Source: a virus. Taken from it: a stretch of DNA of 64,000 bases. Within the stretch, counting starts at the first letter, position 1. Each line of letters opens with the position of its first letter. The notes beneath the pieces were generated by a model. That model saw nothing but the letters and a program-made list of their open reading frames with translations, made no database searches and was not told where the DNA came from. Position numbers and translations under genes: made by a program. The stretch covers positions 32,001-96,000 of the IMG/VR virus record IMGVR_UViG_3300032397_000006; one strand, 5' to 3'. Shown piece after piece: positions 7,887 to 34,077 of this stretch.

Positions 7887-9860
7887 TTAGCCGTGAGGGC
7901 AGGAACATGCCCCGAATGCGTGCGTGAGCATATCCGTTTGCTGCACCGCACGGTAACCGTGGATCACGCAGTCGCCCGCGATCGAAGCTTTTGCTACACG
8001 GTCGCGCTCGCTGTAGTCGAGCGCCACGTTTGCGGCGCGCCCGAAAGTCGGCACCTGCCGATCGTCTGCGAATCGCACCAACTTGAGATGCGAGGGGGCG
8101 ACAGAGAGCCGCGTCGAGGAACTGTGCGCGTGCTGGTTTGCGTCGAGCGCTTTGAACCAATCGTTTCCCTGACTGAGCTGAAACACCGCACCGCCGATGC
8201 CCGCCGATCCTGTCGCCGTGTGGCTGTCCTCGTCGGTGGGTAGCGTGCTTTTCGCCGCCAGCGCTTCGGTCACACCGATGATTTGTCGCTCGCGCAAGAT
8301 CTTGGCTACCGCGTCCTGCGTGACCTTGTAGCGCGACGCGGCTGCTCGCAAATTCTTACTCGTGCCCAGCGACTGCACGAGCTGCCCCATAATGGCTTGA
8401 GCCATTGCTTGCTCGTTGTACATTTGCTGCGGCGATTCTTGCGACACCACGCCGTAGCTCGTCTCGATAAAGCTCACGAGATACGGCATGAGAAACCGCT
8501 CCGGAATCGCGACGTCGGTACCGTCGTCTGCAAAGCCGTCGAGTCCCTTGCGCAGCACGTTGCGCTGCAACGCGTGGAAAAGTGATTTCCCAAGAGCACG
8601 CGCGCTTTTCTTGACCCTGAACGGATTCTGCTTTTCTTGCTCAGCTGCGTACTCGCGATCGAGGCGCTCTGCATACTCGCGCGCTTCCGCTTGCGGTTCG
8701 TACGTGTCCAGGTGTTCCTTGGCTGCGGCCTCGTGCTTCTCCGCTTCAGAATGAAAGCCGTACTTCCTGTGATCCTCTGCGACGATCAAATGCGCTTCTG
8801 CTGCGCGTTTGTGTAGCACTTTCTTGTTTTTTGCGCGCTTATTCGACGCTTCCATATCCGCAATCTCTGCGTCTGCTTTCTTAGCGCGCAGCAGACGGTG
8901 GATTTTCTCGTCGACCGCAACGGGCGCGGGAGGCGCAGAGCCCTCGATATACGCGTATTGCCAGCCTCCCTTACCGTCTGGCTTGCGCGTAATGTACTTG
9001 TGCCCAGGTCGCTCCGAATTCCAGCTCGATCCCTCCGCCTTAAACATGGAGGATTTTCCGAACGGCTTCTTTCCGCCGAACGCGGGAGGCTTCTTTTTCG
9101 GCTTGGCCTGATCGCCACCGAACGGCTTAGCCTTTGGCTTCGCGCCGAACTGCTGCGCGGGCTTTCCTGTACCGCCGTCTGCATCCTGATCGTCAGGTAC
9201 GCCGTCGTCGTCGGCATCCACGTCCTGATCGTCGGGCACGCCGTCCCCGTCCTGATCAGCATCCTGATCGTCAGGCACACCGTCCCCGTCCTGATCGGGC
9301 GCGTCCTGATCGGGCTGCTCGTCGCCGGGACCACCGCCGCCAGCCTCGAGCCCTTGCCCGCCCTGCACCGCACGCACGAGCTTGCGCACAAGCTTGTGGT
9401 ACGTGTCGAGCAGCGCCATGGAGTTATGGTGCTGCGCGCCGTGAAATCCCTTCGCGGCGTAGTAGTCGCGCTCTGCATCGGCGATTTGCTGCACGAGTGC
9501 CTGAGGGTCTTCGCTCGCGTCGCCACCTGCGTCCGCGCCGTCGTCGCCCTCCGGCAGATCCTCCCCATCGCCCTCGTCGTCGAAGCCCTCGTCGTCGCCT
9601 TCCTCGCCCGCGCCGTCGTCGAGCTCGTCACCGTCACCATCACCAGGCCCGGGCTCGCCCTCGTCGCCATCGGGCTCCTCGCCCTGATCGTCGCCCTGCC
9701 CGTCGTCGGGTGCCGTGTCAGACGCGTCCGGAGCTCCGCTGTTCGGATCCTGATCGTCGGGCACACCGTCCCCGTCCTGATCATTCTCCTCGTCAGCGCC
9801 CGCCTTTTTCTTGGCGAACGGCGGCACGGCTTTCAGCAAAAGATCGATCGCGTCTAGCAT
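7887..9860 (-). CDS. tagged head-associated protein with acidic DxDGDGVPDDQD repeats
   Basis: 657 aa; thrombospondin type-3-like Ca-binding repeats; one GHKY..PDGKGGW tag; many phi-x-K-[AS] sites; adjacent to the portal. Confidence 0.7.
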   Translation of the reverse strand: MLDAIDLLLKAVPPFAKKKAGADEENDQDGDGVPDDQDPNSGAPDASDTAPDDGQGDDQGEEPDGDEGEPGPGDGDGDELDDGAGEEGDDEGFDDEGDGEDLPEGDDGADAGGDASEDPQALVQQIADAERDYYAAKGFHGAQHHNSMALLDTYHKLVRKLVRAVQGGQGLEAGGGGPGDEQPDQDAPDQDGDGVPDDQDADQDGDGVPDDQDVDADDDGVPDDQDADGGTGKPAQQFGAKPKAKPFGGDQAKPKKKPPAFGGKKPFGKSSMFKAEGSSWNSERPGHKYITRKPDGKGGWQYAYIEGSAPPAPVAVDEKIHRLLRAKKADAEIADMEASNKRAKNKKVLHKRAAEAHLIVAEDHRKYGFHSEAEKHEAAAKEHLDTYEPQAEAREYAERLDREYAAEQEKQNPFRVKKSARALGKSLFHALQRNVLRKGLDGFADDGTDVAIPERFLMPYLVSFIETSYGVVSQESPQQMYNEQAMAQAIMGQLVQSLGTSKNLRAAASRYKVTQDAVAKILRERQIIGVTEALAAKSTLPTDEDSHTATGSAGIGGAVFQLSQGNDWFKALDANQHAHSSSTRLSVAPSHLKLVRFADDRQVPTFGRAANVALDYSERDRVAKASIAGDCVIHGYRAVQQTDMLTHAFGACSCPHG

Positions 9861-9921
9861 AGGTCTCCCCTCGGATTCTCGCCGAGAGTACCCTAGCGCC
9901 TACGCGAGCGCGAGCGTTGAC

Positions 9922-10095
9922 CTACTTCGCCGCGGACTCGCGTGCAACGCACGCACGGAATCGGACAACATCCTCGCTATCCTCGAGACTTGAATCCGCC
10001 CTGTCGTCGCTGTCGTCGCGCACGTAGTTTTTCAAGCGTTCAAGCATATCCTCGCGACTGAACGAGGCCTTTCTTGGTTTCTGATCCTCCATCAC
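9922..10095 (-). CDS. small acidic hypothetical protein
   Basis: Start overlaps the stop of the zeta-domain gene. Confidence 0.5.
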   Translation of the reverse strand: MMEDQKPRKASFSREDMLERLKNYVRDDSDDRADSSLEDSEDVVRFRACVARESAAK

Positions 10096-11387
10096 ACCCT
10101 CCGGAGCACGAGCTTTACAGCTCGCATAGACTTCATCCAACCACGGGCGCGCGCGATCAAATGTCGGCGTAATCCCGTCTGTTTGAATTTTCGCACATAG
10201 TTCGGATCAATAACAACGTCGGGCTGATTTTCTCCGCCCGCCCACACTAGGCGCGGTTTCGGGCCTGCGTTGTCAAATAGCGAGAATTCATGAGCTCTAC
10301 GCGCTATCTGCTCGAAATTCCCAGGAATGACGTGGTGCGCTTCCCGCACGAAATTGTCAGGCACGTAACGCCCGGTATTCCGCGCTCGGGAGCCCACGCG
10401 GGAGACAGCCTCAGCGAGCGGAATGTGTGGCATCACGAGGTGCACGTGGTAGCCCGCGGCTTTCAGTGCCTCGATTCGCCCAATGAATTTCTCCGTGTTT
10501 TTCCCCGTGCCGTCGAGAATCAAATTCTTGCGCTCTGCCACAGCGCGAGCTCGGACCTTTTCGCCGAGGTCGCTGGACTCCTCGTGTGCCATGGCCGCGG
10601 CATCTTTCGCCGTCACCGTCGATCCGTCCGCTGTGAGTCCGTACGCGAGAGCTCGCTGATACTCAGGTAGCTTTTCCTTACACGCGTCTGGATCGGACAC
10701 GACGAAATCATTGTGGTCGCCCACTAGCGTGGCGAGGATCGAGCCCTTGCCGACGCCGGAGCCTCCCATGGTGACGATCGCCGTGGGCGTGCGATCGAGC
10801 GGCACGGGCTTCACGTGCTTGGTAAATGAATCCACGATCGCCGCGTGGAGCGCTTTACGCTCAGGCGTGTAATCCTTGAAGCGCACCGGGCGAATACGAC
10901 CGACCTCGATTGTGTGCGCGGTTTTCGTTTCCGCAGGAAGCCCGATCGAAGTCGCGGATTCGAGCCAAGCGCGATCGCGCTTGGTTGCGTGCGTTGCGCG
11001 CTCCGCGTCTGAAAATACGTGCACCACTTCGGCCGGGCTCACGATCGGGAAACTGCTGGGCGCCTCGCGACGCTGCACCGGCTTTGTGCCCGTGTGTCCG
11101 TAGTCGTAGTTCCAGCCGCCCTTACCATCTGGCGTGCGACGAATGTATTTATGCCCGGGCCGCTCCTCGCCCTTTTCCGACTTGAGCAAATCGAGCGGGA
11201 TCACGTGCGCCTTTTGTGTCGGCTGCTGCTGCGCTTGCTGTCGAGGAAAGCGAGCTCGAAATCCGCGCTCCCTCGAGCGTCGGATGTCCGAATATTTCTT
11301 AGGCTGCGCGAGCCCTTGTGCGAGGCCTCCGCGCAGCATATCGGCGAGGCGTGCCGTCTCGCGTGGATCCTTCGGCGGTAGGCTCAC
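10092..11387 (-). CDS. tagged zeta-toxin-family P-loop kinase
   Basis: GGSGVGKG Walker A, DPDACKEKLPEY, AHEESS, NLILDGT, GRYVP, FSLFDN; one tag; GTGA-coupled start at 11387. Confidence 0.88.
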   Translation of the reverse strand: MSLPPKDPRETARLADMLRGGLAQGLAQPKKYSDIRRSRERGFRARFPRQQAQQQPTQKAHVIPLDLLKSEKGEERPGHKYIRRTPDGKGGWNYDYGHTGTKPVQRREAPSSFPIVSPAEVVHVFSDAERATHATKRDRAWLESATSIGLPAETKTAHTIEVGRIRPVRFKDYTPERKALHAAIVDSFTKHVKPVPLDRTPTAIVTMGGSGVGKGSILATLVGDHNDFVVSDPDACKEKLPEYQRALAYGLTADGSTVTAKDAAAMAHEESSDLGEKVRARAVAERKNLILDGTGKNTEKFIGRIEALKAAGYHVHLVMPHIPLAEAVSRVGSRARNTGRYVPDNFVREAHHVIPGNFEQIARRAHEFSLFDNAGPKPRLVWAGGENQPDVVIDPNYVRKFKQTGLRRHLIARARGWMKSMRAVKLVLRRV

Positions 11388-14300
11388 GTGTCCCCCCAAA
11401 TGCGCTTTCCTGCGGTCGCGCCCTGATAAATGTGCGAGGCGATTTTGCCTGCACGGTGCTGATCTTCAATGTAACTCATGGAGTCTCGATAAATCGAGTC
11501 TGCATTTATTGCGCGCGCACTGTCTGGCATGCTGTCGCCCAACGCTACGTTCGGTTTGCCCCCTGGAAATGTCACCTCAGCGAATACGAAATCCGCGTGA
11601 TCCTTGTGCGCTTCGTGGAATTTCGAGAAGTTTTTCGCGCCCTCTGCGTAGCTGTCGGCGAATACGCGTGCGTCGACCATACGCCCCGCGCCCACCGCAC
11701 GTGCGACAGCGCCTGGCCAAGCGCGCTTTGGATCCGAGTGCACAAACATGAACGTGGGCTTTATCCCACGTTTCGCGCACTCAGAAATCAACCACTCGTT
11801 CTCCGTTGCGTTCTGCTCGCCTGCCGCGTCCCAGGTAGCAGCTACTGACTTCGGCAGATCAGGACGCGCGGCAAGGCCTACGCCTTTGCCCGCCGCACAG
11901 CCGCCGCTCGTGACCAAGATCTTACGGTCTCCCGGTGCCATTTTCGCGATCTCGTCAAGGCGCGTGATAAAGGCACGCTTCGCGATCGCGTTCGCAGTCT
12001 GATGCAGCGCAGTGTTGTACAAGCTCCGCGCCTTGGCACGCTCGAGATTCATCGGCTCGCCTGGCTTATCCGGAGGCAAGTCGTCGCGCTTCCAGTCGGC
12101 GAGCAATGCCTTCGCGCCATCTGTTTCGAACACGTAATTGTTCTTTTTCGCGATCTCGCCGAAAGCCTGAGCTGTACCGTTCGGGTCGCGCTCGAATGCG
12201 TCCGCGAAACGCGTCTCGATCGCACGCTCCTCGTGCGTGAGGTTAGGCAGCTTCGGCACACCAGGCGGGGGCAGCACAGCATCGCCCGGAATGCCGACGC
12301 GTGCGGCTTTCTCGTTCGGCTTCTGCGGCGTGGCGCTCCTCGAGAGCGGCTTACGCTTGACGGCTTGGCCTTGCGCAGATCGCGCCGTGCGTGGTGGCGC
12401 GTTCGTGTAGAAATACTGCCAGCCGCCCTTACCATCTGGCTTGCGCCGCATGTACTTGTGGCCGGCGCGTTCTTGCCCCGGTACAAATGCCTTTTTCATC
12501 GCACGACGGCGCACGCAAAACGTCGTCTGCGATTCCTTCGCACCGGCTTCTACACTGCGCAGTTTCTTGTAGTAGTCCGGACGCTCGCACAGGTGATCGA
12601 GGGCGATATCCGCGGCTTTCTCGAGATCCTTTGTGTGCTCGAGCTCGACCTGCATTCCTGCCTGTAGATCGGTCGCTGTCCAGCGCGCATGCTCCCACTC
12701 CACACCGAGGCGCTTCGCAGCGCTCATAGCTGCATCGTGCGAAACACGAAGTGCTTTCGACTTCCGCGTAGTGTCAGTGGCGCAGCTCGCGCAAGGCACA
12801 ACGGGATCGCAGCCAGAGCAGCTCTTTTTCAGCCCCTTTTTCGCCTTCGCGCGAGCTCGGGCCTTACGCCCCTTTGCGCGGTGCGACCACTCGAGCGCCT
12901 TACCTTCTGGCAGCTTGCCCTCAGCTTCTGCAGCGAAAGCCCAACGGCGCTGCTTTTCGCTAAACGGGTGCTGCATCTTGCCCTTCGCGAAAGCTTCAAG
13001 CTCGTCGAGCGGATCGAGTGATTTCTTTTTCTCAGCTGCCGCCAGCTGCTTTGCTACGCCGTGCGCATAGCTTTCAGCCAGCAGAGAAGCTCCGCCAAAT
13101 TCGACATCCTTTGGTGCCACGTGCGACATCTCGCGCACAAAGTGCTCGGCCTCCGCTTTGCTCGTGAGTGCTCCGCCCGCGTTGATGGAGTATCCGCTCG
13201 GAATATGCGTGACGTGGTAAATGCCGTACTGCCCGCGCGTGATTCCGTAATCGCCGATCGCCGGCATGGACGTGACCTCAGGATCGCGGATTTCCTTACC
13301 GTCTTTATCGCGGATCGCCAAGTGCACGTCGACCGTGCGCAGCTTCTCAGGCTTGATGCCCGCGACCTTTTCAGCTGCGCGCATAGCGTCGCGGTGCTTC
13401 GCGACCTTTTCGAATGCAGATTCCATCGCCTCGTTCAGACCAGGCGCCGCTTTGCGTGAAAACACGTAGGGGTGGCTGTTCTCCCAAGACTCGCGCCGCG
13501 CCTTTGAAGCGACGTCGAGATCCTTACGCGCTTCGGAGAGCTGCTGACTGTGGGAGGCAGCCTCGCGCGCGTGCTCGTGTGGCGTATCGCCCGCGACGAC
13601 GTGTGAATAGACGTAGTGCCAGCCCCCGCGACCATCGGGCTTGCGAGTCAGGTATTTGTGCCCTGCAACCTCGTCGCCCTTCGCGGCCTTGCTGAGCTCG
13701 CCGAGATTGTCTAGCGCATCGCCACTCTTGAGAGCCAGCATTCCCCATTTTTGCGACTCGGCGAGGCCTGCGCGCATGCCTGAGAACGCACCCTCAGACA
13801 TACCTGCCCGCTCGAGAGCAGCATCTAAACGCTCGCGTGTGACCTTCGCATGCGCCTTGGCCTCAGCGTGCCGCGTCGAACCCGGAGTGTGCGCGTATTG
13901 GCTGGCGACACGCTCTGCGCTCGCGCGCTCGTGCTCGCGCGACGCTGCCACCACAGCGCGCTGTGCAAGTGGCGCCTTACGCTTCGCATGCGCGTCTGCG
14001 TAGTCGTAGCGCCAGCCGCCGTGCCCGTTCGGCTCGCGCTTGAGATACTTGTGGCTGGTTGCCTCGTCGCCCTTGGAGGCCTTGATCAAAGGCAAGAGTG
14101 CATCGATCGCGTCGGCTGATTTATACGCGAGCGAAGTCGTCTTGAGGGCAACCCTACGCACGGTGCTAGGACTCGCGCGCAAACGGGACACGGTTTGCTT
14201 GTTCCAGAAATGCTCGATCTTACGTTTCGCTTTGCGCTTGGCTTTACGCGCAGCGAGCGCGCCCTTGATCTTTGCGTAGACGTAACTCCAACCGCCCTTA

Positions 14301-15586
14301 CCGTCAGGCTTGCGCTCCGTGTACTGATGCCCTGCCTGCTCCCCGCCGCGTACAGCATCAGCCTTCGCTGCTTTAATAAACAGCACAGGTGCCGATTTCT
14401 CGACTTTTGCCGGACGCCACGCATCGGGCTTCGTGTCAGGCTTTACGCCGTCTGCATTCTTGTCGTAGGAGCTGTCTTTTATGTAGCCACGCGGCACGAC
14501 GTCGAACGTGCAGTAGATGCCCATAATACCGATCGTGCTCCCCCAATTTTCGGTTGTGATCGGCGACGCTTTGTAGACGCTGTGCCGCTCAGTAAGGATC
14601 TTTTTTCGCATCTCTTTCACAGCACCCCACAGAGCATCTTTCTCGCCCTTGTTCGCGTAGGTGCTGTGGAACTTGATCGTCGCCTTAGCAGTCGGGCGAA
14701 ATGTCTTCGGGTGCGTTTCGCGTATCACGCTAACGGTCCCTTTTTCGCCGAACGTCTTCGGTCCTTTCTCGATATCAGAGAGCAGCTTGTCTATTTCCGG
14801 TGGCGGCAGCTCGCCCTCTTTTTTAGAGGCCGCATGCTCCGCGCTACCCTCTGCGGGATATTCATAATCCCAGCCGCCCTTACCGTCTGGCTTGCGCGTA
14901 AGGTATTTGTGCCCCGGGCGCTCCTCGCCCTTGGCTAGAGATTTCTCGTATTTGAATTCCGCGGTCTCCCGCTCGTATTTCGGCACTTGATAAGGATCTA
15001 CGTGTTTCCACCGCCCCTCGTGCCATACGGGCTCGAGATTCTTTTTCTTGCGCGCAGCTGGTAAAGGCGCCGTAAATAGCGGCGTAGCCGGCTTGTGCTC
15101 ATCGATTCGCGCTTCGGAATAGCCGCCAGGCAAGCGCCGCGTGCGCACATACGAAGGGTAATTGCCGAGACTGCGCGGCATGTCGAAATCAACGTTGTCG
15201 GAAGTCGCGCCGTCTCCCTCCAATAGGTGCCCGAAAACCTTAATCTCTTTCGAGTGCCAGCTCCCGCCCGCCGTGGCCAGGTACACCTTACCGTTATGCG
15301 GCAGCAGAAAAGGCGCGCTGTGCCCCTCGGTCGCGGCTTGCTCGATCGCTTGCTTGAGCACGCTCGGATCAAAGGCGCCCACTTGTTTCTTGTGATCGGC
15401 GGGAGGCTTGTAGCTGTATTTCCATCCGCCTTTACCATCTGGCGAGCGCAGCAGATATTTGTGCCCCTCGACCTCTACGCCCTTCGCCGCTTTCTCGAGT
15501 AGCGCTAGGGGATCGAGCTCAGGCTGAGCTCTCACAAGGCTCAAGCCGATTGCGTGCTTTCGAAGTGCTGAGATCGCATCAGTCAT
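11384..15586 (-). CDS. tagged multi-module (polyvalent) protein: six tags, DUF5661-like domain, C-terminal zeta-like kinase
   Basis: ATGA-coupled start 15586; GMQVELEH...ALDHL.ERPDYY (DUF5661-like); VTSGGCAAGKG P-loop and GRMV motif. Confidence 0.85.
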   Translation of the reverse strand: MTDAISALRKHAIGLSLVRAQPELDPLALLEKAAKGVEVEGHKYLLRSPDGKGGWKYSYKPPADHKKQVGAFDPSVLKQAIEQAATEGHSAPFLLPHNGKVYLATAGGSWHSKEIKVFGHLLEGDGATSDNVDFDMPRSLGNYPSYVRTRRLPGGYSEARIDEHKPATPLFTAPLPAARKKKNLEPVWHEGRWKHVDPYQVPKYERETAEFKYEKSLAKGEERPGHKYLTRKPDGKGGWDYEYPAEGSAEHAASKKEGELPPPEIDKLLSDIEKGPKTFGEKGTVSVIRETHPKTFRPTAKATIKFHSTYANKGEKDALWGAVKEMRKKILTERHSVYKASPITTENWGSTIGIMGIYCTFDVVPRGYIKDSSYDKNADGVKPDTKPDAWRPAKVEKSAPVLFIKAAKADAVRGGEQAGHQYTERKPDGKGGWSYVYAKIKGALAARKAKRKAKRKIEHFWNKQTVSRLRASPSTVRRVALKTTSLAYKSADAIDALLPLIKASKGDEATSHKYLKREPNGHGGWRYDYADAHAKRKAPLAQRAVVAASREHERASAERVASQYAHTPGSTRHAEAKAHAKVTRERLDAALERAGMSEGAFSGMRAGLAESQKWGMLALKSGDALDNLGELSKAAKGDEVAGHKYLTRKPDGRGGWHYVYSHVVAGDTPHEHAREAASHSQQLSEARKDLDVASKARRESWENSHPYVFSRKAAPGLNEAMESAFEKVAKHRDAMRAAEKVAGIKPEKLRTVDVHLAIRDKDGKEIRDPEVTSMPAIGDYGITRGQYGIYHVTHIPSGYSINAGGALTSKAEAEHFVREMSHVAPKDVEFGGASLLAESYAHGVAKQLAAAEKKKSLDPLDELEAFAKGKMQHPFSEKQRRWAFAAEAEGKLPEGKALEWSHRAKGRKARARAKAKKGLKKSCSGCDPVVPCASCATDTTRKSKALRVSHDAAMSAAKRLGVEWEHARWTATDLQAGMQVELEHTKDLEKAADIALDHLCERPDYYKKLRSVEAGAKESQTTFCVRRRAMKKAFVPGQERAGHKYMRRKPDGKGGWQYFYTNAPPRTARSAQGQAVKRKPLSRSATPQKPNEKAARVGIPGDAVLPPPGVPKLPNLTHEERAIETRFADAFERDPNGTAQAFGEIAKKNNYVFETDGAKALLADWKRDDLPPDKPGEPMNLERAKARSLYNTALHQTANAIAKRAFITRLDEIAKMAPGDRKILVTSGGCAAGKGVGLAARPDLPKSVAATWDAAGEQNATENEWLISECAKRGIKPTFMFVHSDPKRAWPGAVARAVGAGRMVDARVFADSYAEGAKNFSKFHEAHKDHADFVFAEVTFPGGKPNVALGDSMPDSARAINADSIYRDSMSYIEDQHRAGKIASHIYQGATAGKRIWGDT

Positions 15587-18500
15587 CGCTTCCCCGTTTC
15601 CACAGCGTCCCGGATCGTAGCCCATTCTCGCACGTTGAAGCGTATCGAAGGCTTCTGCGGCGCCGCCCCATGGAAAGCGTATTTACCACTGTTCCGGCGT
15701 GCGAGGGCCTTCCTTCGGCGCCTGGAGGCCTTCACTTCCTTTTCGGTCTGCACGGTCCCGTAGATGCCCTCGAAATCGGGGGACTCCTGCGAAGGGCTGT
15801 AGCGCTGCACGACGTAGGATTTCACGAGAGCTCCGTGGTTGCTCGGGTCGGTCACGAACGCGGCGAAATCTTCGAACGCGACCGCGCGCACTTGCCCCAA
15901 GAATCGAGGATCGTCGTAGTGCGCTTGGTAAGCCTGCACCGCGGCACCGAGATTCGAAAACCCGAGCATGCACTTCTGTTCGTCTACGTGCACGAAGTCG
16001 GGCGACTTGAGCTGATCGATCACGAACACGTAAGGCGCCATCTTGTCGGGCCCGACGTAGACGTCCACGTGATCGCCATCCGTGCCTTGCGTGCGCCGCA
16101 CATAGCCGTAGTCGTGCACCATCTTTGTTTTGCCTGCGCGCTTCGCGTGTGCGTCGTACCAGTGCCGGTAAGATCCTGCCTGGTTTTCGACGCTCACCTT
16201 TAGCCCGCGGAAATCCCGACGCCTGTGCAGCTTGCGCGACTTCTCGAGCGGAGCTTTCAAGCTGTCGATCACTTCTGTAATCGCATCGTCGCTGTCCTCA
16301 ATATGCGCGCCGAAACGCGCGAAAGCCTGCCTGATCGCAGGTTCAATCATGCGCCGCCCCCCGGGCTCGCTCGCGAGCTCTGCGTACTCCTCTCGATATT
16401 CAGCCAGCGCATTGATCGCGTGCGACACTGCTTGCTTTCTGCCCTCAGGCGAAGCAATAGGCTGCAGCTCGTAGGAGCGTTGATCCTCTTTTGATAGAGG
16501 CGCGTCGTAGGTCACGGTGCCGTGCCGAAAAGCAGGATGCTTTCCAATCGAGGAAAATCCTTTAGGCGCTGTGAACGTACCGATCGGCCTATTCTGCATA
16601 CCGTACACGTAGTGCCAGCCTCCCTTACCATCAGGGTGACGCTCCGCGTAAAGGTGCCCCGCTTGCTCCTCGCCCTTTGCCGCTTTACGCAACACGAGCA
16701 GCGCCTTCAATACAGCATCCTGAAACGCGTGGCGCTTATCCCAATCGAAATCGAGCGCGAATTTCGACGGTCTGCCGGGTGTCTCGACGCGCGTATAGAA
16801 ATCCTCAGCTGCGGGCTTATATTCGTAGCCCTTGCCTTTATGGTGCTCGCCCGCGTGTCCGCCCGTCGTGAAATGCATCTCATGCGCTCCGCGGTGCGAA
16901 TGAATTACTGAGTCTTGATTAAACTGCTTTCCGAGCGCGCGCATAACACCAAACTCGCTAGGCGAATCGTGGTGCACCATGAAGGCATTACTTTTCTGCG
17001 GCTTCGCGCTCTCGTGATGCACGATAAAGCTCGCCTCACGCGAACCATAATGCCCCTCGACCTCGGTATAGCGGAGCTTGCGCTTTTTCAGCTCGCCTCG
17101 CAGGCGTTCGTGTCGCGCTTTGAATTCCGCGTGATCCTCAGACATGTCCTTTTCGCGCGCGTCGTTTCCGTTGCGACCTGCGCTGATAATCGAATAGGTG
17201 CCGTGCTCGAGCAGATCGTCCAGCTGCGGACGCGTGAGACGCACCTCGCCCGCGGGTTTGCGTGGAGGTCTGTCGCTCGGGTGCCCGGGCAGATCATAGC
17301 CGTAGCGCCAGCCTCCCTTACCGTCTGGCGTGCGGCGCACGTACTTGTGCCCCGGACGCTCGCCTTCGCTGCCCTCGCGCGCTTTACGGATCGCTTCGCC
17401 CCACGGAATGATATGCATACTTTTCTCCGTACCCTCTGCGCGGGCTTTGACGGCTGCGTAAGTGTCAGGGTGCACCGCAGGCGCATCGCCATCGTCGCGC
17501 GTCGCGTTGCCCTTCATGTCCACGCCCAGCCACATTCGCCAGTGTCGATCAAGCTGCCCGATCGAGGAAATCACTCCGGGCTTAGCGAGCAGTTCCTTTG
17601 CCATCTTTTCGCGCTCGGCCTTCGGCAGCTTGCTCGCGTGATACTGCTCGACCTCGAGTTTCTGTTGCTGCTCTGCGGCAACCTTGTCCTGCGCTGCGCG
17701 CTTCGCTTGCGCCGCTTCGCGTTCGGCCTGCGCGGCTGCCTCGCGTGCTGGAGCGCCCGCTTCCCACTCCGCTTGCTTTTGCTTCTCTGCAGCCTTCGCG
17801 GATTTCTTTTCAGCCTCTCGCCGCGCTTCGCGTTCGGCCTCGACCTTCTCTGTCTCGTGCGGCAACGAAATACGATGGCGCTTGAAAGCATCCGGATCCG
17901 GATCGCCGAGCTCCCCTTGTGCTTCCTGAATCGCTGCTGCGGGGACCTGCAAATCATCGCGTGCCATCACGAGCGTTTCTTCTTCGCCCTCGTACGCACC
18001 TAGATCAGCCTCGTGCTCCGCGTGAAACAAGACGGCTTCAACAGGCACGTCGAGCGTGACCACGGCGCCGCGCGTTGCGTACTGCGTGCCGAAGTCGTGC
18101 GCGCTTTCGTGGTCGCTGGTCCAGCTCGACAAGCTGCGCACTGCAACGGGAACGGTGCCGCCCTGCGCTTGCTTCGCTTGCTCGACAAGGGCCTTACCCT
18201 GGTCGTGCGCAATGCCGCGATGAATGCGCACTGTGCGCTCGCCCTTGGCAGCGAATAGCGCCTGCGTCGCTGCGTACTGCCTGATCGCCATCGCTTCGCA
18301 GTCGTCGATTTCCTTTTTCGAGATACGGGACGCACGCGTAACCGCTTCTGCAAACGTACGCTTTTCGTCTGCGCTTGCGCGACCTCGAGCGATCTTGCCG
18401 ATCAACGCGAGTTGTGGCGTGGTTTTCGTCATCCATTCATTTCGCCAAGCGTTACGCACGTGTGACTCGTCGGAATGATCGGCGAAAGCATCATCCGTGT

Positions 18501-20835
18501 GGGAAATGCCTTTCATGGACGCGGCGAGCGCTGCGATTTTCTTTTTATGCGCAGGCGACATGCCGAGATCAGGAGATACCGCGTAAGTGTTCTGCGCTGC
18601 CGGCGTGCGCACGCCCTTACTGTCCTCGTAGAAGTAGTTATGCCCGCCCTTACCATCGGGCTCACGGCGAATGTATTTGTGTCCCGGGCGCTCGCTGCCT
18701 TCGCTCTTTTTCAGTTTGAATCTGGCGAGCACTTCTGGCTTGCGCATTACGCGCTCGATCGGACGCCCAAAACGGTCAGTATCTTCTCCCTCCTCGGATG
18801 ATTGCGAGCCCAGCAGGAGGGCGTACTTTCCTTGATAGGCTTTTGCGTGATCTAATGCCCGCGAGACGTCGCTACCGTCTCGGCTACCTAGATCAATTGC
18901 GCTAGTCCCGTCGAGAACATCATCCGTAGGTTCACCATCCTCCCAGCGGCGGGACTCTGCTAAAATAGAACCGACCTCAGGTGGATCTGCGTCGTCAACA
19001 ATGCGCAAGCCGATCGTATGAAATTCAGGCGCATATTCTTTCAGTATCGACTTCACGGCGTCTATGTGCAACGGCGAGATGTCAGTTCTCTCGCGCTGCT
19101 TGAGTCTATCTTCGAATTGGAGGTCGGAGAATTGCCGCGTAGGCGCGAGCTCGCGCACTTTCGCAACATGCTCGCGCAGCTGATCGAGCGACATCGCGCC
19201 TTCATCGAAAGTCGCGAATAAATCGAGGCTCAAGTCGAGCGCGAGGTGCGGCTCAATCTGAAAATCAATTGCGCGTAGCCCTTTGATCTTGGTGTTGAGC
19301 TCTGCTGCTGCACGCTTACCGATCGGCTGCACGTAGCCGATATCGATCATCTTCGGTTTATCGCCCTCGATCACGAATGAGTTTTCCTTGAATTCAGGCG
19401 CTGTGAATTCGTGCTCGCGCAGCACCTTCGCAATCGTCTGGTGCGCCTCCCACAAGCCTTTCGAACCCCACCCCCCGGGTCTGCCCTCGACCTCAGCGCG
19501 CACGAGCGTGTCAGTGTCCGCGTCGTATTTTTCGAACGAGGGCACGAGGTCTTTCGTGCGCGGATCCTTGCTCAGCACCTCGAGAGCGTGCGCTTCATTC
19601 TTGCGCGAGCTCACGCCGCGGCGACCGACCTTGTACGCGGAGGCTCCATCCGTGAACACGATGCCCTCAGCGCCCGCCCCTAGCAGGCTCAGGGTGCCCG
19701 CTCTCGCGCCAGCCTTCACGGCACGTGCCGCAGCCTGCGGGAGCTCCGCGTGGACGGCGGCAGGCGCGTCCTCGAGTAACTTTGCGACGTCGACCTGTTC
19801 CGGGCGCTCCAACTTTTTCAGCGCTTCGGCCAGATCCTGATCAATGACCAGCTTACCGAAGGCGTCGGCATCCTTGCGGAGCGCGTGCGACATATCGATC
19901 AACTCGAGTGCGAATTTGTCCCGTTGCGCGTCTTGCTTCGGCGGGAACTTCAACACGTGTCGTAGCTGCGCTTCCCACTCATATTCGAGATTCGCGCCGC
20001 GAGGCGTGTAACGCTGTCCATTGCGTGCGTACAGACTCTCAAGTCCGTCGAGATCACTCTGCTGCGGAGACAGATGCCGGTAGCCGTCGTAGGGCTCCGC
20101 CTTGCCCGCCTTGCCTACGTCGAACATGAAGGCCTTACCGTCGTCATCGACACCGATCTGCGGCGTGTCGCCGAGCACGTAGCCGGCTTTGTGCATCGCG
20201 AGCACCGTATCGTGGGCCGCGTCGAGCTGCTCTAGCGTGAGCTTGTCGGGAATGCCGAGATAGCGCTTGATCGTGTAGCCGCGCCCGTCGTGCTCCACGA
20301 AGCGCTCAGGCAGTAGCCCGGGCACTCCGGCATCGCGGAGAGCTTGCTGTGTCTCGTGCTGCTCGCGTGCGACCTCGACAGCTTTCTGCGCTGTCTTGTA
20401 CCAGGGGTTTGACGGCTGATAGGGGACAACCGTGCTGACTTTGACAACGTTGTCCCCTGACTTGAAAACAAGACCGTCGTCGCCCTTACCAAGAAACTCG
20501 GCAGTACCTCCGGTCACGGCGTCGATATCCGGATCTCCGCTTTTCTTATCGCTGACTACGCGGCCTTCTAAATCATCCTTGTACATAGCAAGCGCGTCGT
20601 GCGAAATCTTGTGCCCGTAGCCAGGCACCGTCGCGTGAAAGCCGACGCTCGCGTGCGTGTCGTCGGAATCAAATACTTTCCATTTGAGCGTGCCGCGCAT
20701 TCCGAGCTTTTCGTGCGGCGTAATGTCGATCTCATGCCCCGCTAAATAGCGATAGAGCCAGCCGCCCTTACCATCAGGATGGCGCTCGAGATACTTGTGC
20801 CCCTCTACGGTTTCGCCCTTGGCTGCCTTCTGCAT
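15583..20835 (-). CDS. tagged polyvalent protein: two kinase-like, ART-like, SAM-lyase-like, DarA_C-like and inorganic pyrophosphatase domains
   Basis: 1750 aa with four tags. LGKGDDGLV..VVK..FDVG; LGAGAEGIV..AYK..IDIG; IHRG..SSWT..EEE; IISAGR..GHY..EAS..QDSVI; NRP..APKG..RHG.V.Y..PL..YEL; VENQAGSYR..YGYV..DGDHVDV..DEQKCMLGF. Confidence 0.85.
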   Translation of the reverse strand: MQKAAKGETVEGHKYLERHPDGKGGWLYRYLAGHEIDITPHEKLGMRGTLKWKVFDSDDTHASVGFHATVPGYGHKISHDALAMYKDDLEGRVVSDKKSGDPDIDAVTGGTAEFLGKGDDGLVFKSGDNVVKVSTVVPYQPSNPWYKTAQKAVEVAREQHETQQALRDAGVPGLLPERFVEHDGRGYTIKRYLGIPDKLTLEQLDAAHDTVLAMHKAGYVLGDTPQIGVDDDGKAFMFDVGKAGKAEPYDGYRHLSPQQSDLDGLESLYARNGQRYTPRGANLEYEWEAQLRHVLKFPPKQDAQRDKFALELIDMSHALRKDADAFGKLVIDQDLAEALKKLERPEQVDVAKLLEDAPAAVHAELPQAAARAVKAGARAGTLSLLGAGAEGIVFTDGASAYKVGRRGVSSRKNEAHALEVLSKDPRTKDLVPSFEKYDADTDTLVRAEVEGRPGGWGSKGLWEAHQTIAKVLREHEFTAPEFKENSFVIEGDKPKMIDIGYVQPIGKRAAAELNTKIKGLRAIDFQIEPHLALDLSLDLFATFDEGAMSLDQLREHVAKVRELAPTRQFSDLQFEDRLKQRERTDISPLHIDAVKSILKEYAPEFHTIGLRIVDDADPPEVGSILAESRRWEDGEPTDDVLDGTSAIDLGSRDGSDVSRALDHAKAYQGKYALLLGSQSSEEGEDTDRFGRPIERVMRKPEVLARFKLKKSEGSERPGHKYIRREPDGKGGHNYFYEDSKGVRTPAAQNTYAVSPDLGMSPAHKKKIAALAASMKGISHTDDAFADHSDESHVRNAWRNEWMTKTTPQLALIGKIARGRASADEKRTFAEAVTRASRISKKEIDDCEAMAIRQYAATQALFAAKGERTVRIHRGIAHDQGKALVEQAKQAQGGTVPVAVRSLSSWTSDHESAHDFGTQYATRGAVVTLDVPVEAVLFHAEHEADLGAYEGEEETLVMARDDLQVPAAAIQEAQGELGDPDPDAFKRHRISLPHETEKVEAEREARREAEKKSAKAAEKQKQAEWEAGAPAREAAAQAEREAAQAKRAAQDKVAAEQQQKLEVEQYHASKLPKAEREKMAKELLAKPGVISSIGQLDRHWRMWLGVDMKGNATRDDGDAPAVHPDTYAAVKARAEGTEKSMHIIPWGEAIRKAREGSEGERPGHKYVRRTPDGKGGWRYGYDLPGHPSDRPPRKPAGEVRLTRPQLDDLLEHGTYSIISAGRNGNDAREKDMSEDHAEFKARHERLRGELKKRKLRYTEVEGHYGSREASFIVHHESAKPQKSNAFMVHHDSPSEFGVMRALGKQFNQDSVIHSHRGAHEMHFTTGGHAGEHHKGKGYEYKPAAEDFYTRVETPGRPSKFALDFDWDKRHAFQDAVLKALLVLRKAAKGEEQAGHLYAERHPDGKGGWHYVYGMQNRPIGTFTAPKGFSSIGKHPAFRHGTVTYDAPLSKEDQRSYELQPIASPEGRKQAVSHAINALAEYREEYAELASEPGGRRMIEPAIRQAFARFGAHIEDSDDAITEVIDSLKAPLEKSRKLHRRRDFRGLKVSVENQAGSYRHWYDAHAKRAGKTKMVHDYGYVRRTQGTDGDHVDVYVGPDKMAPYVFVIDQLKSPDFVHVDEQKCMLGFSNLGAAVQAYQAHYDDPRFLGQVRAVAFEDFAAFVTDPSNHGALVKSYVVQRYSPSQESPDFEGIYGTVQTEKEVKASRRRRKALARRNSGKYAFHGAAPQKPSIRFNVREWATIRDAVETGKR

Positions 20836-24805: not shown

Positions 24806-24817
24806 TCGATCACCTCA

Positions 24818-25499: not shown

Positions 25500-25524
25500 T
25501 ACTCGAGTACCCTTTCGCTATGGC

Positions 25525-26647: not shown

Positions 26648-26656
26648 GATTCCCCC

Positions 26657-27154: not shown

Positions 27155-27170
27155 AGCTGCAAGAGTAACA

Positions 27171-27937: not shown

Positions 27938-27942
27938 TAGCG

Positions 27943-29949: not shown

Positions 29950-30513
29950 TTAGCTAGTCTCCATTCCCCACGCGTCCCAGCCGCTGACACGCGCACGCGC
30001 AAACAATTCAATTCGCGGCCTGTCGCCGTACAGACTCACGATCTTGTCGCGAATCACCGGAGGCTTCTCCGAGTGCCTTCCGCGACCGTGCAGCACGACC
30101 TGCCCCATTGCACAGTCCAGCAACGGAAAAGGTCGCCCGCGAGGCCTCAGCGTCGCCAGCAGGCATAATTCAGTCGTGGGCTTGGTGCACGTCGGAGGCA
30201 CGCCTTGCCCGTTGATTATCGCGCCTGATTTATTCGTTTTCACCCACACGAACGCGACACCTCGATAGTGCAAGCCCCACGATGCGATCGCGCGAAATGC
30301 GAGGTCCGCACGAGGACACGTGCACCACAGAAACAACGCACCTTCGCGCCCTCGAAACAGCGCGCGGATCGGCATGTCGCAAATCTCGTCGATCGACATC
30401 AGATCGTAGTGCTTACCCGCAGCTCCATCCTTTGTCGCCGAGCCGTACATAGGCCAGGGCGGATCGGCGTAGATCAGATCGTAGCCGGCTGCGTGCTCAC
30501 TGAGCGCGATCAT
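29950..30513 (-). CDS. MT-A70 family N6-adenine methyltransferase
   Basis: YADPPW, HY.LMS.DEI, LFLWCT, FVWVK, HSEKP, IELFAR, GWDAWG; ATGA start at 30513. Confidence 0.92.
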   Translation of the reverse strand: MIALSEHAAGYDLIYADPPWPMYGSATKDGAAGKHYDLMSIDEICDMPIRALFRGREGALFLWCTCPRADLAFRAIASWGLHYRGVAFVWVKTNKSGAIINGQGVPPTCTKPTTELCLLATLRPRGRPFPLLDCAMGQVVLHGRGRHSEKPPVIRDKIVSLYGDRPRIELFARARVSGWDAWGMETS

Positions 30514-30803
30514 TTGCGACACCGCGGCATCCTGCGCGCTAGCGGCACGGTGCGAAGTGCTGCCGTGTGCTCGCGTAGAAAATCGAGCACGTACCGCGTG
30601 GCCTCGGCCTTCGCGTCCTCGATTCCCTTGTGCTCTAACGGCACGCGCGAGATCCCTAGTCGGGGGCAGCTCAACAGCCACTGCGTAGCGGCAAAATCAA
30701 TATGCCGGTGCACGCACAGCTCGCACTGCCCGAATTTCACGCGATGCGCGTACGCGATCGTCGTGCCTGCCCTCGTGTCCTCGATCCAATCGCCCACGCT
30801 CAC
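30510..30803 (-). CDS. hypothetical protein
   Basis: Coupled ORF. Confidence 0.5.
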   Translation of the reverse strand: MSVGDWIEDTRAGTTIAYAHRVKFGQCELCVHRHIDFAATQWLLSCPRLGISRVPLEHKGIEDAKAEATRYVLDFLREHTAALRTVPLARRMPRCRK

Positions 30804-30851
30804 CCCTGCGCGCGGCTTTACTACGGCGTACGATAACCGTCAAGCTGCAGA

Positions 30852-31433
30852 TCAACGCTCGATAAACGCGAGCAAACGATCTATTGCTTCGACCTCCGGA
30901 TCGGGCGCTTGCGCGGGCACTAGGCGGAGCACCGCGGCTTGCCTAGGCGCGTGCAGCAGTCGCACCGGAGGTGCTGCTACAGGCGCTTCGAACGAGGCCA
31001 AGGTGCGCGCCTTATCGTCGCGCTCAAGCTCCCAATCAAACGAGACCGAACCGTAAAAGTTCACGTCGAAATAGTCGGTCATCCTGTCCGATCGGTCATA
31101 GTTGTAAGCGTCTCGAATGCCCTCTAGCGCGTCCAGCAAAGCCCGCGCTGCGTCGGTGTAGCGGCCTCCCGGGTGCGAGGTCGAGTGCGGGTAATCCCGT
31201 TCGTACAGCACGCGTTCAGGGCTGCAAATCACGAAACCCTCAGGCGCCGCAGTGACCTCCACGTCGAGACTGCGCCCTCCGCTATATTTTCGTACGCGCA
31301 CCGAGATTTTGCAGTCCGGCATCGCGCCCGACTTGATCGAGGCCTTGATCTCCGCGCGCACACGCTTTGCGATGGCCACGATCGACAAGTCGCGATCGTA
31401 TTTCGAACCTGAGCTATTGCAGTTTTCCATCAC
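30852..31433 (-). CDS. large polyvalent protein-associated (LPD29-like) domain protein
   Basis: AKRVRAEIK..KISVR..YSGG.SLDV...YN.D.SD.MTDYF; SD AAGGGAAGGG. Confidence 0.65.
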   Translation of the reverse strand: MMENCNSSGSKYDRDLSIVAIAKRVRAEIKASIKSGAMPDCKISVRVRKYSGGRSLDVEVTAAPEGFVICSPERVLYERDYPHSTSHPGGRYTDAARALLDALEGIRDAYNYDRSDRMTDYFDVNFYGSVSFDWELERDDKARTLASFEAPVAAPPVRLLHAPRQAAVLRLVPAQAPDPEVEAIDRLLAFIER

Positions 31434-31452
31434 GGTACCCTTCCCTTTTTAT

Positions 31453-31710
31453 TCACACGCGCTTGTACGAACTGCTCAGTGCGTACTCAGCGGCAACGCG
31501 CCGGCACGCGGATTTCAGAAAGCTTTTCGAGTACCCGCGCAGCACCTTCAACTCGTGCGCCCAGCATCCAAGAATACTCCCGCCAAGCACCTTCACTTCG
31601 ACGCGAACATCGTCCGCCCAAACCACTTCGCCCTCGAGACCAGCCCAGCTCGGACACTGCACACCGACGTACCGAACGATCGCGCCTTTTTTGACTTCCT
31701 TGTTTCCCAC
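31453..31710 (-). CDS. hypothetical early-type protein
   Basis: GTG after the cassette SD. Confidence 0.6.
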   Translation of the reverse strand: MGNKEVKKGAIVRYVGVQCPSWAGLEGEVVWADDVRVEVKVLGGSILGCWAHELKVLRGYSKSFLKSACRRVAAEYALSSSYKRV

Positions 31711-31714
31711 AAAG

Positions 31715-31761
31715 CACCTTCCCTTCAATCTAGTTATCTCACGACGCGATAACTCGCGCAA
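31715..31761 (-). promoter_or_regulatory. repeated promoter/operator/RBS cassette
   Basis: Near-palindrome 31734-31752; SD GAAGGGAAGGTG. Confidence 0.8.
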
Positions 31762-31777
31762 GCGGAAACGCCCGCGG

Positions 31778-32200
31778 TCAGGAGACCGAGCGCGCCAGAT
31801 CTTCGACCGCTCGCCGCAAGTCAAACCGATTCAAGTCTTCGTCCAGACTTTCGCGCCCGAGTACGCGCTCAGCGAGAGCTCGCACTTTCAAGATGTCGTC
31901 ACTGAATTCCTCGTTCACACACTCGAGTTTTTCCACCTGATCTTCGAGCTCGCTGATCTCGCCGCGCAAGCGCTCGATCACGTTGCGTTCACTCACGAGC
32001 TCGTCAACCAAGCACTGCGCCAGCTTCGCAAACTGCAGCGCGATAGGCCCCACGTCCCGCGCCACGCCGTTATCGACAACACACACGCCTTCACTTTGGA
32101 GCACTGAGACGAACGCCCGAAAATCCTCGATCTTCCGGTCAGCCGCTTCCTCGAGTGACAGCGCCTTCGGTCGCGCCTTCGCTTTTACGTTCCTTGCCAC
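31778..32200 (-). CDS. coiled-coil hypothetical protein
   Basis: GTG after the cassette SD. Confidence 0.65.
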   Translation of the reverse strand: MARNVKAKARPKALSLEEAADRKIEDFRAFVSVLQSEGVCVVDNGVARDVGPIALQFAKLAQCLVDELVSERNVIERLRGEISELEDQVEKLECVNEEFSDDILKVRALAERVLGRESLDEDLNRFDLRRAVEDLARSVS

Positions 32201-32204
32201 GACT

Positions 32205-32251
32205 CACCTTCCCTTCGATTTAGTTATCGCATGTTCCGATAAGCTATGCAA
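32205..32251 (-). promoter_or_regulatory. repeated promoter/operator/RBS cassette
   Basis: Near-palindrome 32224-32242; same SD. Confidence 0.8.
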
Positions 32252-32260
32252 GATCAAAAG

Positions 32261-32584
32261 CTAGTCGCTTGCGGCATCATCGTACGCTGCGATTCCGTGC
32301 CGATTCAGCACCTCAGCGAACACGCGCGCTCGTCCGAGAGCTCGGCCGTCCGCATTGTCGTAGCCCATGTAAATCGCGTTCTTGCCCACGCCGTAGCCTT
32401 GCGCGTTGAAGATCAGGCCAGACTGCTCACACACCTTTTTGACCGCTTTGATCAGAGCGCGGTCACCCGACACGCATACGTAAGCACGACCGCAGCCGGA
32501 CGCGCGAGCAGCAATGTAGGGCGCGTCATTTGCCTCGCGGATTGCTACGGCCACCTTGCTCTCGAGCTCTGAATTCTTTCCCAT
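32261..32584 (-). CDS. conserved phage early-type protein
   Basis: GCGRAYV...IYMGYDN..G...FAEVL..HGI.AY. Confidence 0.7.
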   Translation of the reverse strand: MGKNSELESKVAVAIREANDAPYIAARASGCGRAYVCVSGDRALIKAVKKVCEQSGLIFNAQGYGVGKNAIYMGYDNADGRALGRARVFAEVLNRHGIAAYDDAASD

Positions 32585-32588
32585 GAAA

Positions 32589-32635
32589 CACCTACCCTTC
32601 AATCTAGTTATCGCACGAGACGATAACAGCGGCAA
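32589..32635 (-). promoter_or_regulatory. repeated promoter/operator/RBS cassette
   Basis: Near-palindrome 32608-32626; SD GAAGGGTAGGTG. Confidence 0.8.
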
Positions 32636-32667
32636 CGCTTTTCGACCGCTAACGTAGGAGCGCTCGC

Positions 32668-34077
32668 TTAACTCTCGACGCTGTGTCTGTGAGCGGCGTG
32701 CCTCTCGGCTGCCTGCCGGCTGCCGGTCTCTGCGATCACGCTGCCTGCGCGGCGCACTTGCCAGAGCCCGTCCGATCCACGCTGTACCGTGTGCTGCCCG
32801 TGCGTCGCCACGACGGGCCCTGTAGCGCTCGCTGGATCGCGCACGGGCAAAGGGGGTGGCGTACCGCCAGCCTTGCCCGGAAGGGGCGGAGGCTTGGCGG
32901 CGTCGGCCTGTTTCGGCAACGGCGGAGGCACGCCCGCGGCACGCGTCGGAGGTGTCTCGCGCTTGCGCTGATCCACAGCCGCGAGCGCTGCCGCTTGCGC
33001 CGCAGCACGCTTTGCCTTCGCACCTCGAGGCTTCGCGCCCTTCGCGCCCTGCAACGAGGCCAACAGCTTCGCGTGCTGCGCGAGCTGCGCGCCTTGCTGC
33101 GCGAGCTGCGCCTGTAGCTTGCCCTCCCTGCGCGTCGATTTCGCATGCTCCGCGGTCAGTGCTGCGTGTCCATTCGCTTGCGCTGCTGCGTGCTCTCGCA
33201 ATTGCGAGCGTGCCGCTTTCGCTGCTCTCTGATCGCCTGAGCGTTTCGCCTGCACGAGTGCACTGCGCGCGATCTTGTGCTCGCGCACGAGCGCTTGCGT
33301 CGAGGCCTGATGCTGCGCGTGCTGTTGCGCGAGCTGACCGTGCAACGCCTTAAGCTGAACCTGAGTCTGTTTATGGGCTGCGATCAAATGCTGTTGCGCG
33401 ATCGCGTGCGCCTGCATTTGTTTCGCATTACGTTTCTTCGACTCTGCGAGCCGTCCCGACGCGGTGCGCTTATGTGCCTGCAGTTTTTTCGCGAACGCTT
33501 TCTGATGCGAAAGCAACGCGCCCGCAGAGATTCGCTTCTGCTGCTCGAGTCTCTTACTGTGTGCGCGAACCGTAAGCTTGAGCTTTTTCTTGAAGGCCTT
33601 CTGATGCGCGAGGAGCTTCTCTGTGTGCTGCTTTTTCTGCTGCTCAAGTTTCTGCTTAGGCGTGAGCTTTTTCGCCTTACTGCGCGCAGGCACGTGCAAC
33701 GGCATGCGGGCAAGCTTGCTCCACTTACCGCCAGCTTTACGACCTACCCATTTCTTACCGTCGAAACGAAACTCGTGCCGCTGGCCGCGCGACTTGACGT
33801 GAAAGGTGCTCGCCTTTCCGGAGTGCTCGATCTTGTGCACCATGCCCGCGGCACCCGTCCGCATCGCAACGGCGGTACCTACGCCTAGTCGTCGAGGAGC
33901 GCCCTGCGGCGCTGCGTAGACGTAATTCCAACCACCCTTACCGTCTGCTTTACGCGTAAGGTATTTATGACCAGGCATTTCCTGCCCGGGCACAGCAGCT
34001 TTACGCAAGGGCTCCGCAAAAGACAGCACGTCGAAGTGCGTCACGTCTTGTGCAGTCAACGGAATTACCAGGAGCAT
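32668..34077 (-). CDS. tagged, highly basic coiled-coil protein (putative internal head protein)
   Basis: LRKAAVPGQEMPGHKYLTRKADGKGGWNYVY tag; K/H/Q/A-rich; PPPLP repeats. Confidence 0.75.
   Translation of the reverse strand: MLLVIPLTAQDVTHFDVLSFAEPLRKAAVPGQEMPGHKYLTRKADGKGGWNYVYAAPQGAPRRLGVGTAVAMRTGAAGMVHKIEHSGKASTFHVKSRGQRHEFRFDGKKWVGRKAGGKWSKLARMPLHVPARSKAKKLTPKQKLEQQKKQHTEKLLAHQKAFKKKLKLTVRAHSKRLEQQKRISAGALLSHQKAFAKKLQAHKRTASGRLAESKKRNAKQMQAHAIAQQHLIAAHKQTQVQLKALHGQLAQQHAQHQASTQALVREHKIARSALVQAKRSGDQRAAKAARSQLREHAAAQANGHAALTAEHAKSTRREGKLQAQLAQQGAQLAQHAKLLASLQGAKGAKPRGAKAKRAAAQAAALAAVDQRKRETPPTRAAGVPPPLPKQADAAKPPPLPGKAGGTPPPLPVRDPASATGPVVATHGQHTVQRGSDGLWQVRRAGSVIAETGSRQAAERHAAHRHSVES

Follow-up and report, generated by a model that had tools for sequence, protein, structure and literature searches.

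The giant polyvalent proteins of phages have raised a question since their description: how are they packaged and taken apart? In the passages of the work of Iyer, Burroughs, Anand, de Souza and Aravind (2017) on which we draw, the genes of long proteins made of unrelated effector domains neighbour those for portal and head, the proteins are predicted to enter the capsid and be injected, and zincin-like peptidases are proposed as their processors (PMC5512222). Here we analyse a peptide tag that recurs 13 times in five such proteins of a virus (IMG/VR record IMGVR_UViG_3300032397_000006). Each copy would be a two-part "cut-and-keep" module that opens a cargo unit. The window, that is, the whole stretch of 64,000 nucleotides analysed, covers bases 32001-96000 of the 104,085-bp record, which CheckV rates as complete. 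Coordinates prefixed G000:C1 (capsid protein, protease, scaffold, MuF-like protein) refer to the whole record and lie upstream of the window. The genome has a guanine-plus-cytosine (GC) content of ~0.6 and the minus strand holds nearly all genes.

A repeated tag module in five polyvalent proteins

A six-frame scan of the window with the core pattern G-[KRH]-G-G-[WH]-x-Y-x-[YF] gave 13 copies in five open reading frames (ORFs), all on the minus strand. A profile made of these copies and run against the whole 104,085-bp record recovered the same 13 and no others, with E values between 1e-17 and 5e-21 each. The G of GKGG is located at 20772, 18654, 17322 and 16629 in protein P0001, at 15436, 14884, 14302, 14026, 13633 and 12433 in P0002, and at 11126, 8975 and 33942 in P0003, P0004 and P0005, which have single copies. 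The layout is the same in 13/13 modules: a hydrophobic-x-K-[A/S] tetrapeptide (phi-x-K-[A/S], where phi is hydrophobic; position P3 is hydrophobic at all 13 sites), a spacer of 7-13 residues, frequently x-K-G-E-E-x-x, and then the 19-residue core G-H-K-Y-x-x-R-x-P-D-G-K-G-G-W-x-Y-x-Y, which is basic and aromatic. The 13 cargo segments are mutually unrelated, with no BLAST similarity at E<0.01. The initial annotation of this DNA, made from the letters alone, had placed 13 copies in five proteins at these positions, with the same tetrapeptides before every tag and a different sequence after each; the scan, the genome-wide profile and the BLAST comparison bear it out. The modules are listed below, the arrow marking the predicted cut.

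20746..20835, minus strand: tag module 1, site MQK↓A, at the extreme N-terminus of P0001
18628..18714, minus strand: tag module 2, site LKK↓S
17296..17391, minus strand: tag module 3, site IRK↓A
16603..16692, minus strand: tag module 4, site LRK↓A; the adjacent upstream VLK↓A is the top-scoring site of the whole genome (site matrix, below)
15410..15499, minus strand: tag module 5, site LEK↓A
14858..14950, minus strand: tag module 6, site YEK↓S
14276..14380, minus strand: tag module 7, site FIK↓A
14000..14089, minus strand: tag module 8, site LIK↓A; before it a D-A-I-D-A-L helix and a further K-S
13607..13696, minus strand: tag module 9, site LSK↓A
12407..12499, minus strand: tag module 10, site MKK↓A, right behind DUF5661
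11100..11189, minus strand: tag module 11, site LLK↓S
8949..9047, minus strand: tag module 12, site MFK↓A
33916..34008, minus strand: tag module 13, site LRK↓A

The coupling between motif and hairpin core was also found across the tag family. A tag-profile search of 1.84 billion representative proteins from public data gave 227 proteins at E<=0.001, of which 42 reached E<=1e-10. Multiple tags (2-6 copies) are common among them, and so is a tag at the extreme N-terminus. It had been suggested initially that the motif should be compared with chance: phi-x-K-[A/S/G] lies within 16 residues upstream of 211 of the 232 tags (91%) versus 7.4% of control windows taken from the same proteins, and chance co-occurrence of motif and tag is excluded. 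The distance from motif to hairpin is 1-13 residues across the family and is either 1-3 or ~8-9. The tag is nearly always placed before cargo, with a median of 305 residues after the last tag (fewer than 30 in 3/151 proteins), and stands at the head of 84/151 proteins. The cargo domains of the family are zeta toxin, InPase, ART-PolyVal, ddrB-ParB, RelA/SpoT, DarA_C, Kinase-PolyVal, NUDIX and S-adenosylmethionine (SAM) lyase. It was also observed that in a subgroup (P0120, P0135, P0136 and P0137) the K before A is replaced by H (Y-L-S-H-A...); no loci for these members were found in the viral-contig scans.

The tagged proteins and the genes that delimit them are the following.

15583..20835, minus strand: P0001, polyvalent protein of 1750 residues with four tags
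11384..15625, minus strand: P0002, polyvalent protein of ~1400 residues with six tags; likely start at 15586, overlapping the P0001 stop
10092..11399, minus strand: P0003, leader of ~70 residues, one tag, then a zeta-toxin-family kinase (Pfam)
7887..9860, minus strand: P0004, very acidic leader of 274 residues, one tag, conserved C-terminal domain; adjoins the portal gene upstream
32668..34077, minus strand: P0005, leader of 26 residues, one tag, basic low-complexity cargo of no known family
6129..7877, minus strand: portal protein of SPO1/Herelleviridae type
35228..36820, minus strand: large terminase subunit (terL)

The tagged genes sit between terL and the portal gene, and relatives show the same context. 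Start and stop overlap in P0001/P0002 and in P0002/P0003, P0004 ends 9 nt short of the portal gene and P0005 is one small ORF downstream of terL, in agreement with the earlier description of coupled genes upstream of the portal with a fifth near terL. The five tagged proteins fit the polyvalent class of Iyer et al. 2017 and belong to the head module: P0001 carries at least two unrelated effector domains on one polypeptide, and the genes have the phage-type location among portal, terminase and head genes. As in the polyvalent proteins treated in those passages of PMC5512222, InPase, ART-PolyVal, zeta/kinase, DarA, ddrB-ParB and RelA/SpoT are strung together near portal and head genes. Unlike them, each junction here carries a conserved, predicted cut motif of the prohead serine protease together with a hairpin; no recurring junction peptide is described in the searched passages of that paper, and Pfam, which holds its domains, has no model of the tag.

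The predicted products of P0001 are residues 4-710 (no family match), 711-1151 (DRAT/ART-like), 1152-1384 (SAM-lyase-like) and 1385-1750 (DarA_C and InPase). Among its Pfam matches (InPase, S-adenosylmethionine-lyase-like, DarA_C, DRAT/ART-like) only InPase and SAM lyase are above the Pfam cut-off, and the DarA_C-like stretch is directly behind a tag. The cargo of P0002 includes DUF5661 (Pfam) and a C-terminal P-loop module without family match. PHROG relatives of parts of the cargo are labelled as minor head, virion structural or internal virion proteins, or as "released from the phage upon host infection". DUF5661 (D-P-x-Y-Y motif; window 12500-12720, P0002 residues 969-1026) was often seen directly preceding a tag, also in low-GC relatives.

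Some further observations concern P0004 and its surroundings. Its leader (residues 1-274, window 9039-9860) has four copies of D-x-D-G-D-G-V-P-D-D-Q-D, which resemble thrombospondin-type-3 calcium-binding repeats and have no Pfam match; this leader would be cut off at MFK↓A, and an acidic run is also present in the scaffold-like protein. Residues ~420-657 (window 7890-8603) form a conserved domain that in relatives is always the extreme C-terminus of portal-adjacent tagged polyproteins. Its invariant C/H/C/C set (C-x-I-H-G ... C-x-C-P) is probably a zinc site. The model of this domain shows a confident helical bundle at residues 25-110, with the remainder poor, and a Foldseek search found no match to its fold in the PDB at E<=0.001. 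A small acidic ORF is located between P0003 and P0004, at window 9922-10092.

The probable cut motif in the head module

By homology of capsid protein, portal and protease, the head module is of the SPO1/Herelleviridae (Staphylococcus-K) type. The capsid protein (G000:C1:24862-26262) matches phrog_752 with 6e-91 and SPO1 Gp6.1 (9vel) with 8e-61, the prohead protease (G000:C1:27227-27967) matches phrog_1028 with 7e-44, and the portal shares 33-38% identity with its best matches among the SPO1-like isolates listed. A prohead protease encoded elsewhere in the genome had been anticipated, and the one found carries the tag-type motif. It appears to be an S78-like serine protease with a sub-threshold match to Pfam Peptidase S78 (PF04586; 16.5 bits, cut-off 21 bits), and its residues H69, S128 and E130 do not vary across 12 relatives.

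Residues 25-28 of the capsid protein read LRK↓A, and phi-x-K-A is found at the same position in every related capsid protein from the fetched loci. Near the C-terminus of the protease lies LAK↓S, and the residues behind it nearly repeat the ~25 that follow the capsid protein's own site. The same pairing occurs in Listeria phage P61, where the capsid protein shows L-K↓S and the protease M-K↓S; it is noted that the Herelleviridae (phi812/K, A511/P61, SPO1) share with the studied phage the capsid, portal and protease families, as well as the phi-x-K↓[S/A] site and the segment repeated near the protease C-terminus. We then compared sequences as deposited in the PDB. Chain 9row_B, a Staphylococcus phage capsid of 439 aa, starts at the serine after V-V-K of the 463-aa 5lii_P; it is without the N-terminal 24 residues of the full-length sequence, and its start aligns with LRK↓A of the studied capsid protein. 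Considering that 9row_B begins right after that lysine, there is good evidence that phi-x-K↓[S/A] is the true maturation site of this head type. Literature searches for published Herelleviridae cleavage sites were unproductive.

Other proteins of the module bear the motif as well. The protease has 7 phi-x-K-[A/S] sites versus 0.57 expected from its composition, the acidic scaffold-like protein (G000:C1:26328-27221, between the protease and capsid genes) has four phi-x-K-S sites, and the motif is 2-4 times over-represented in three of the tagged proteins. The MuF-like minor head protein (G000:C1:29147-30889, 1.1-2.9 kb upstream of the window), with no Pfam or NCBIfam match, has a C-terminal H-E-I-G-H zincin motif and an LRK↓A before the peptidase part. 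A conserved N-terminal F-x-K-A was seen in the protease relatives (alignment A5), a pattern that suggests an N-terminal self-cut.

A site matrix was built from capsid maturation sites alone. It covered P7-P1', and the rest of the P' side was left out because capsid-specific residues dominated it. One of its top-100 sites (of 28,614 in the genome) lies upstream of 5/13 tags, versus 4.8% of random windows, and head and tagged proteins, with 23.5% of the residues, account for 41 of the 100 best sites.

The hairpin and the distribution of the tag

AlphaFold2 was run on a 53-row alignment of the tag. The core was predicted as a beta-hairpin with strands at residues 35-38 and 44-47 and a predicted local distance difference test score (pLDDT) of ~80, which is the fold proposed in the initial annotation, and ahead of it a low-confidence short helix (pLDDT ~57) extends over the cut motif. 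The low model confidence in the site region suggests that the cut site is exposed and flexible, beside a small autonomous hairpin. No Pfam, NCBIfam or PHROGs model matches the tag. DUF3892 was aligned by 2/13 tags over profile positions 47-66 only (E 0.007-0.02, 17 bits versus a cut-off of 22.3 bits), and we do not assign the tag to this family. The motif string appears in no paper of the literature searched, and a search of the ESM Atlas with the tag gave nothing usable.

The tag was found at 40 IMG/VR viral loci that span 30-72% GC. In at least 32 of them there is also a gene for a homologous portal, capsid protein or protease, as a rule no more than 10 kb away (a tag-bearing record, L042, is without this capsid type), and the tag precedes unrelated cargo; both features, vicinity to head genes and variable domains behind the tag, had been put forward beforehand as a way to examine the proposal. 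Thus the tag family travels with this head type, as judged from homology at these loci. The hairpin is nearly invariant among phages whose capsid proteins are ~26-33% identical. In one low-GC locus (L032:9197-10288) the protease, a capsid-like segment and a tag with ~80 residues of cargo are in one ORF.

In 185,579 prokaryote genomes the tag was present at four loci only. Locus L045 corresponds to the first 15.7 kb of a 469-kb contig of an Acidimicrobiia metagenome-assembled genome; its portal is 91% identical and its cargo modules are in another order. This locus may point to the host, be a prophage or reflect a binning artefact. Even close relatives differ in the order of their cargo. In 50,697 phage records the only match was a weak one, to three Thermus "Lalka" phages: gp4 of Thermus phage Lalka27a (L049:9001-10284), a hypothetical protein, has a divergent N-terminal tag (M-A-K-A ... 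G-H-K-Y-I-R-R) and is encoded near DarB-like and Ulx-like antirestriction genes. The isolated phages were also searched with the DarA_C-plus-tag stretch, with one weak and uninformative match.

Processing, packaging and rival explanations

Taking these results together, we propose that the five polyvalent proteins would be co-assembled into the prohead. The first part of each module would be a short segment, probably flexible and helical, with hydrophobic-x-K-[A/S] at its end. This would be the substrate site of the phage's own S78-like prohead protease, which would also use the motif to trim the capsid protein, the scaffold and itself. Cutting at each phi-x-K↓[A/S] would give ~13 products, 97-707 residues long, among them a zeta kinase, a pyrophosphatase, an ADP-ribosyltransferase, a SAM lyase and a DarA-like module; they would enter the host along with the DNA. 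The second part, the basic and aromatic beta-hairpin, would be kept near the new N-terminus of the freed cargo and would most likely dock the product within the head, on a conserved partner that is either the inside of the capsid wall or the packaged DNA. Docked in this way, small products would be retained after cleavage and exit with the genome. The best explanation for a tag on every product is a requirement that it must meet by itself, for example docking. We consider it probable that the prohead protease cuts at the tags. The full scheme, with packaging and a docking role of the hairpin, seems to us somewhat better than evenly balanced. It is also conceivable, as a more tentative and rather doubtful extension, that the hairpin is a portable delivery address, such that any domain placed behind phi-x-K-[A/S] and hairpin would be loaded, freed, held on the wall or DNA and injected, the polyproteins being evolving "magazines" of cassettes.

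The initial annotation had read the proteins as polyproteins loaded into the prohead and cut at K↓A/S. That reading has gained in several respects, since these are polyvalent proteins of the head module, relatives of their cargo are internal or ejected, the motif is that of the capsid, protease and scaffold sites, and the tag follows the head type; the cleavage itself is a prediction from sequence. Several findings weigh against the scheme. Eight of the 13 tag sites share the minimal motif only, which is itself a common helix pattern. Stand-alone tagged proteins retain the motif even though a cut would shed just 3-10 residues, so its role may be a structural one within the tag. There are additional phi-x-K-[A/S] sites without hairpin inside the tagged proteins, for example before the InPase domain, so the tag is not required for every product. 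Unlike the studied phage, the Herelleviridae isolates of Staphylococcus, Bacillus, Listeria and Enterococcus among the 50,697 phage records have no detected tag, which indicates that the tag is not part of head assembly as such. Finally, no clearly related phage is cultured.

The N4 virion RNA polymerase and P1 DarB are loaded into the head and delivered in one piece. The modules might likewise be uncut helix-and-hairpin linkers that space the domains of giant proteins which stay intact from packaging to injection, L-x-K-A being the end of a helix. The retention of the motif at extreme N-termini and the poor scores of 8/13 sites on the extended capsid-site matrix speak for this, and some polyvalent proteins are packaged unprocessed according to the consulted parts of Iyer et al. 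(PMC5512222). However, the helix is modelled with less confidence than the hairpin (pLDDT ~57 vs 80), the same motif is found at the capsid, protease and scaffold sites with strong enrichment in the protease, and in a pure linker K and A/S would not have to stay almost constant over phages that range from 30 to 72% GC; we regard this explanation as unlikely. Less probable still is that the processing is carried out by the zincin-like metallopeptidase of the MuF-like protein with the prohead protease uninvolved. A protein with H-E-x-x-H is indeed encoded in this head module, and the passages of PMC5512222 propose this route for polyvalent proteins generally. A candidate for the processing peptidase expected of a polyvalent system would be this H-E-I-G-H protein, which gave no Pfam or NCBIfam match and is not fused to the tagged proteins. 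Against such a role, the tag motif equals the maturation motif of the capsid protein, which in this head type is a substrate of the prohead protease, and the MuF-like protein bears LRK↓A before its own peptidase domain and so looks like a substrate.

Cleavage could also occur as proposed while the hairpin acts in the host cell, on a common host or phage target such as incoming DNA, RNA or membrane. Near-invariance in spite of capsid proteins that are only ~26-33% identical would fit a universal partner such as nucleic acid, as would the basic, aromatic composition, and P1 DarA-Hdf contacts DNA and leaves with it (PMC12810830). Confinement to one head type would, however, be unexpected if a host target alone mattered, and in locus L032 the hairpin is fused to the prohead protease, an in-head enzyme; we give this possibility the same low probability as the uncut linker. 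That the repeats are mainly recombination joints at the DNA level for cargo shuffling, with a functionless peptide, is very improbable. The cargo order does differ from that of the close relative with the 91%-identical portal, and codon identity among copies is slightly raised (0.555 vs 0.447 expected). The copies have nonetheless a mean DNA identity of 71% with many synonymous differences, and the peptide is conserved over 30-72% GC, where DNA similarity cannot persist; on these two grounds DNA-level conservation was rejected as the driver of the repeats.

The cut-and-keep scheme can be placed among known systems of head cargo. In T4, an N-terminal leader of ~10 residues is the address of the internal proteins and is removed at L/I-x-E by gp21; the cargo is loaded into the prohead and injected. 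For this capsid targeting sequence PMC10052503 cites Mullaney and Black 1996. The tag resembles it as a short peptide coupled to a prohead-protease site on predicted prohead cargo. It is nevertheless not a capsid targeting sequence of T4 type: the site is phi-x-K↓[A/S], the conserved element is downstream of the cut and would be retained, the S78-like protease has no match to a gp21-type family, and up to six units are present per polypeptide. The initial analogy with T4 holds loosely, in that the tag system would work like a targeting sequence in the broad sense only, with a hairpin that would stay on the product where the T4 peptide is removed.

In the phiKZ-like phage SPN3US, the prohead protease (gp245) cuts many proteins of the head interior at a short motif, some of them at more than one site, and all identified cuts remove N-terminal propeptides, except for self-cleavage of the protease (PMC10052503). 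Unlike the tagged polyproteins, SPN3US has no polyprotein that splits into several effectors and no known retained tag. The P1 Dar system (DarA, Hdf, DarB and Ulx) is similar as head-internal antirestriction cargo, and P0001 has a DarA_C-like stretch after a tag; it differs in that the Dar components are separate proteins loaded in a fixed order, with no shared peptide tag reported and a different head type. In P1, DarA-Hdf attaches both to the inner face of the capsid and to DNA and departs at ejection (PMC12810830), a precedent for wall- and DNA-bound cargo of this kind.

Processing of giant polyvalent proteins by such cut-and-keep tags would be new, since it was not found described in the literature searched. 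The module offers a concrete and testable answer, for one large group of uncultured phages, to the question of how polyvalent proteins get packaged and taken apart. If the proposal is true, the head-maturation protease doubles as a polyprotein processor and each product bears a common N-terminal hairpin, which would be a new signal for packaging, retention or ejection. The cargo of the virion would then be predictable from sequence alone, and ~230 protein clusters of no assigned function are flagged as candidate injected effectors. Like the T4 targeting sequence, the tag could also be put to use for bringing foreign proteins into capsids.

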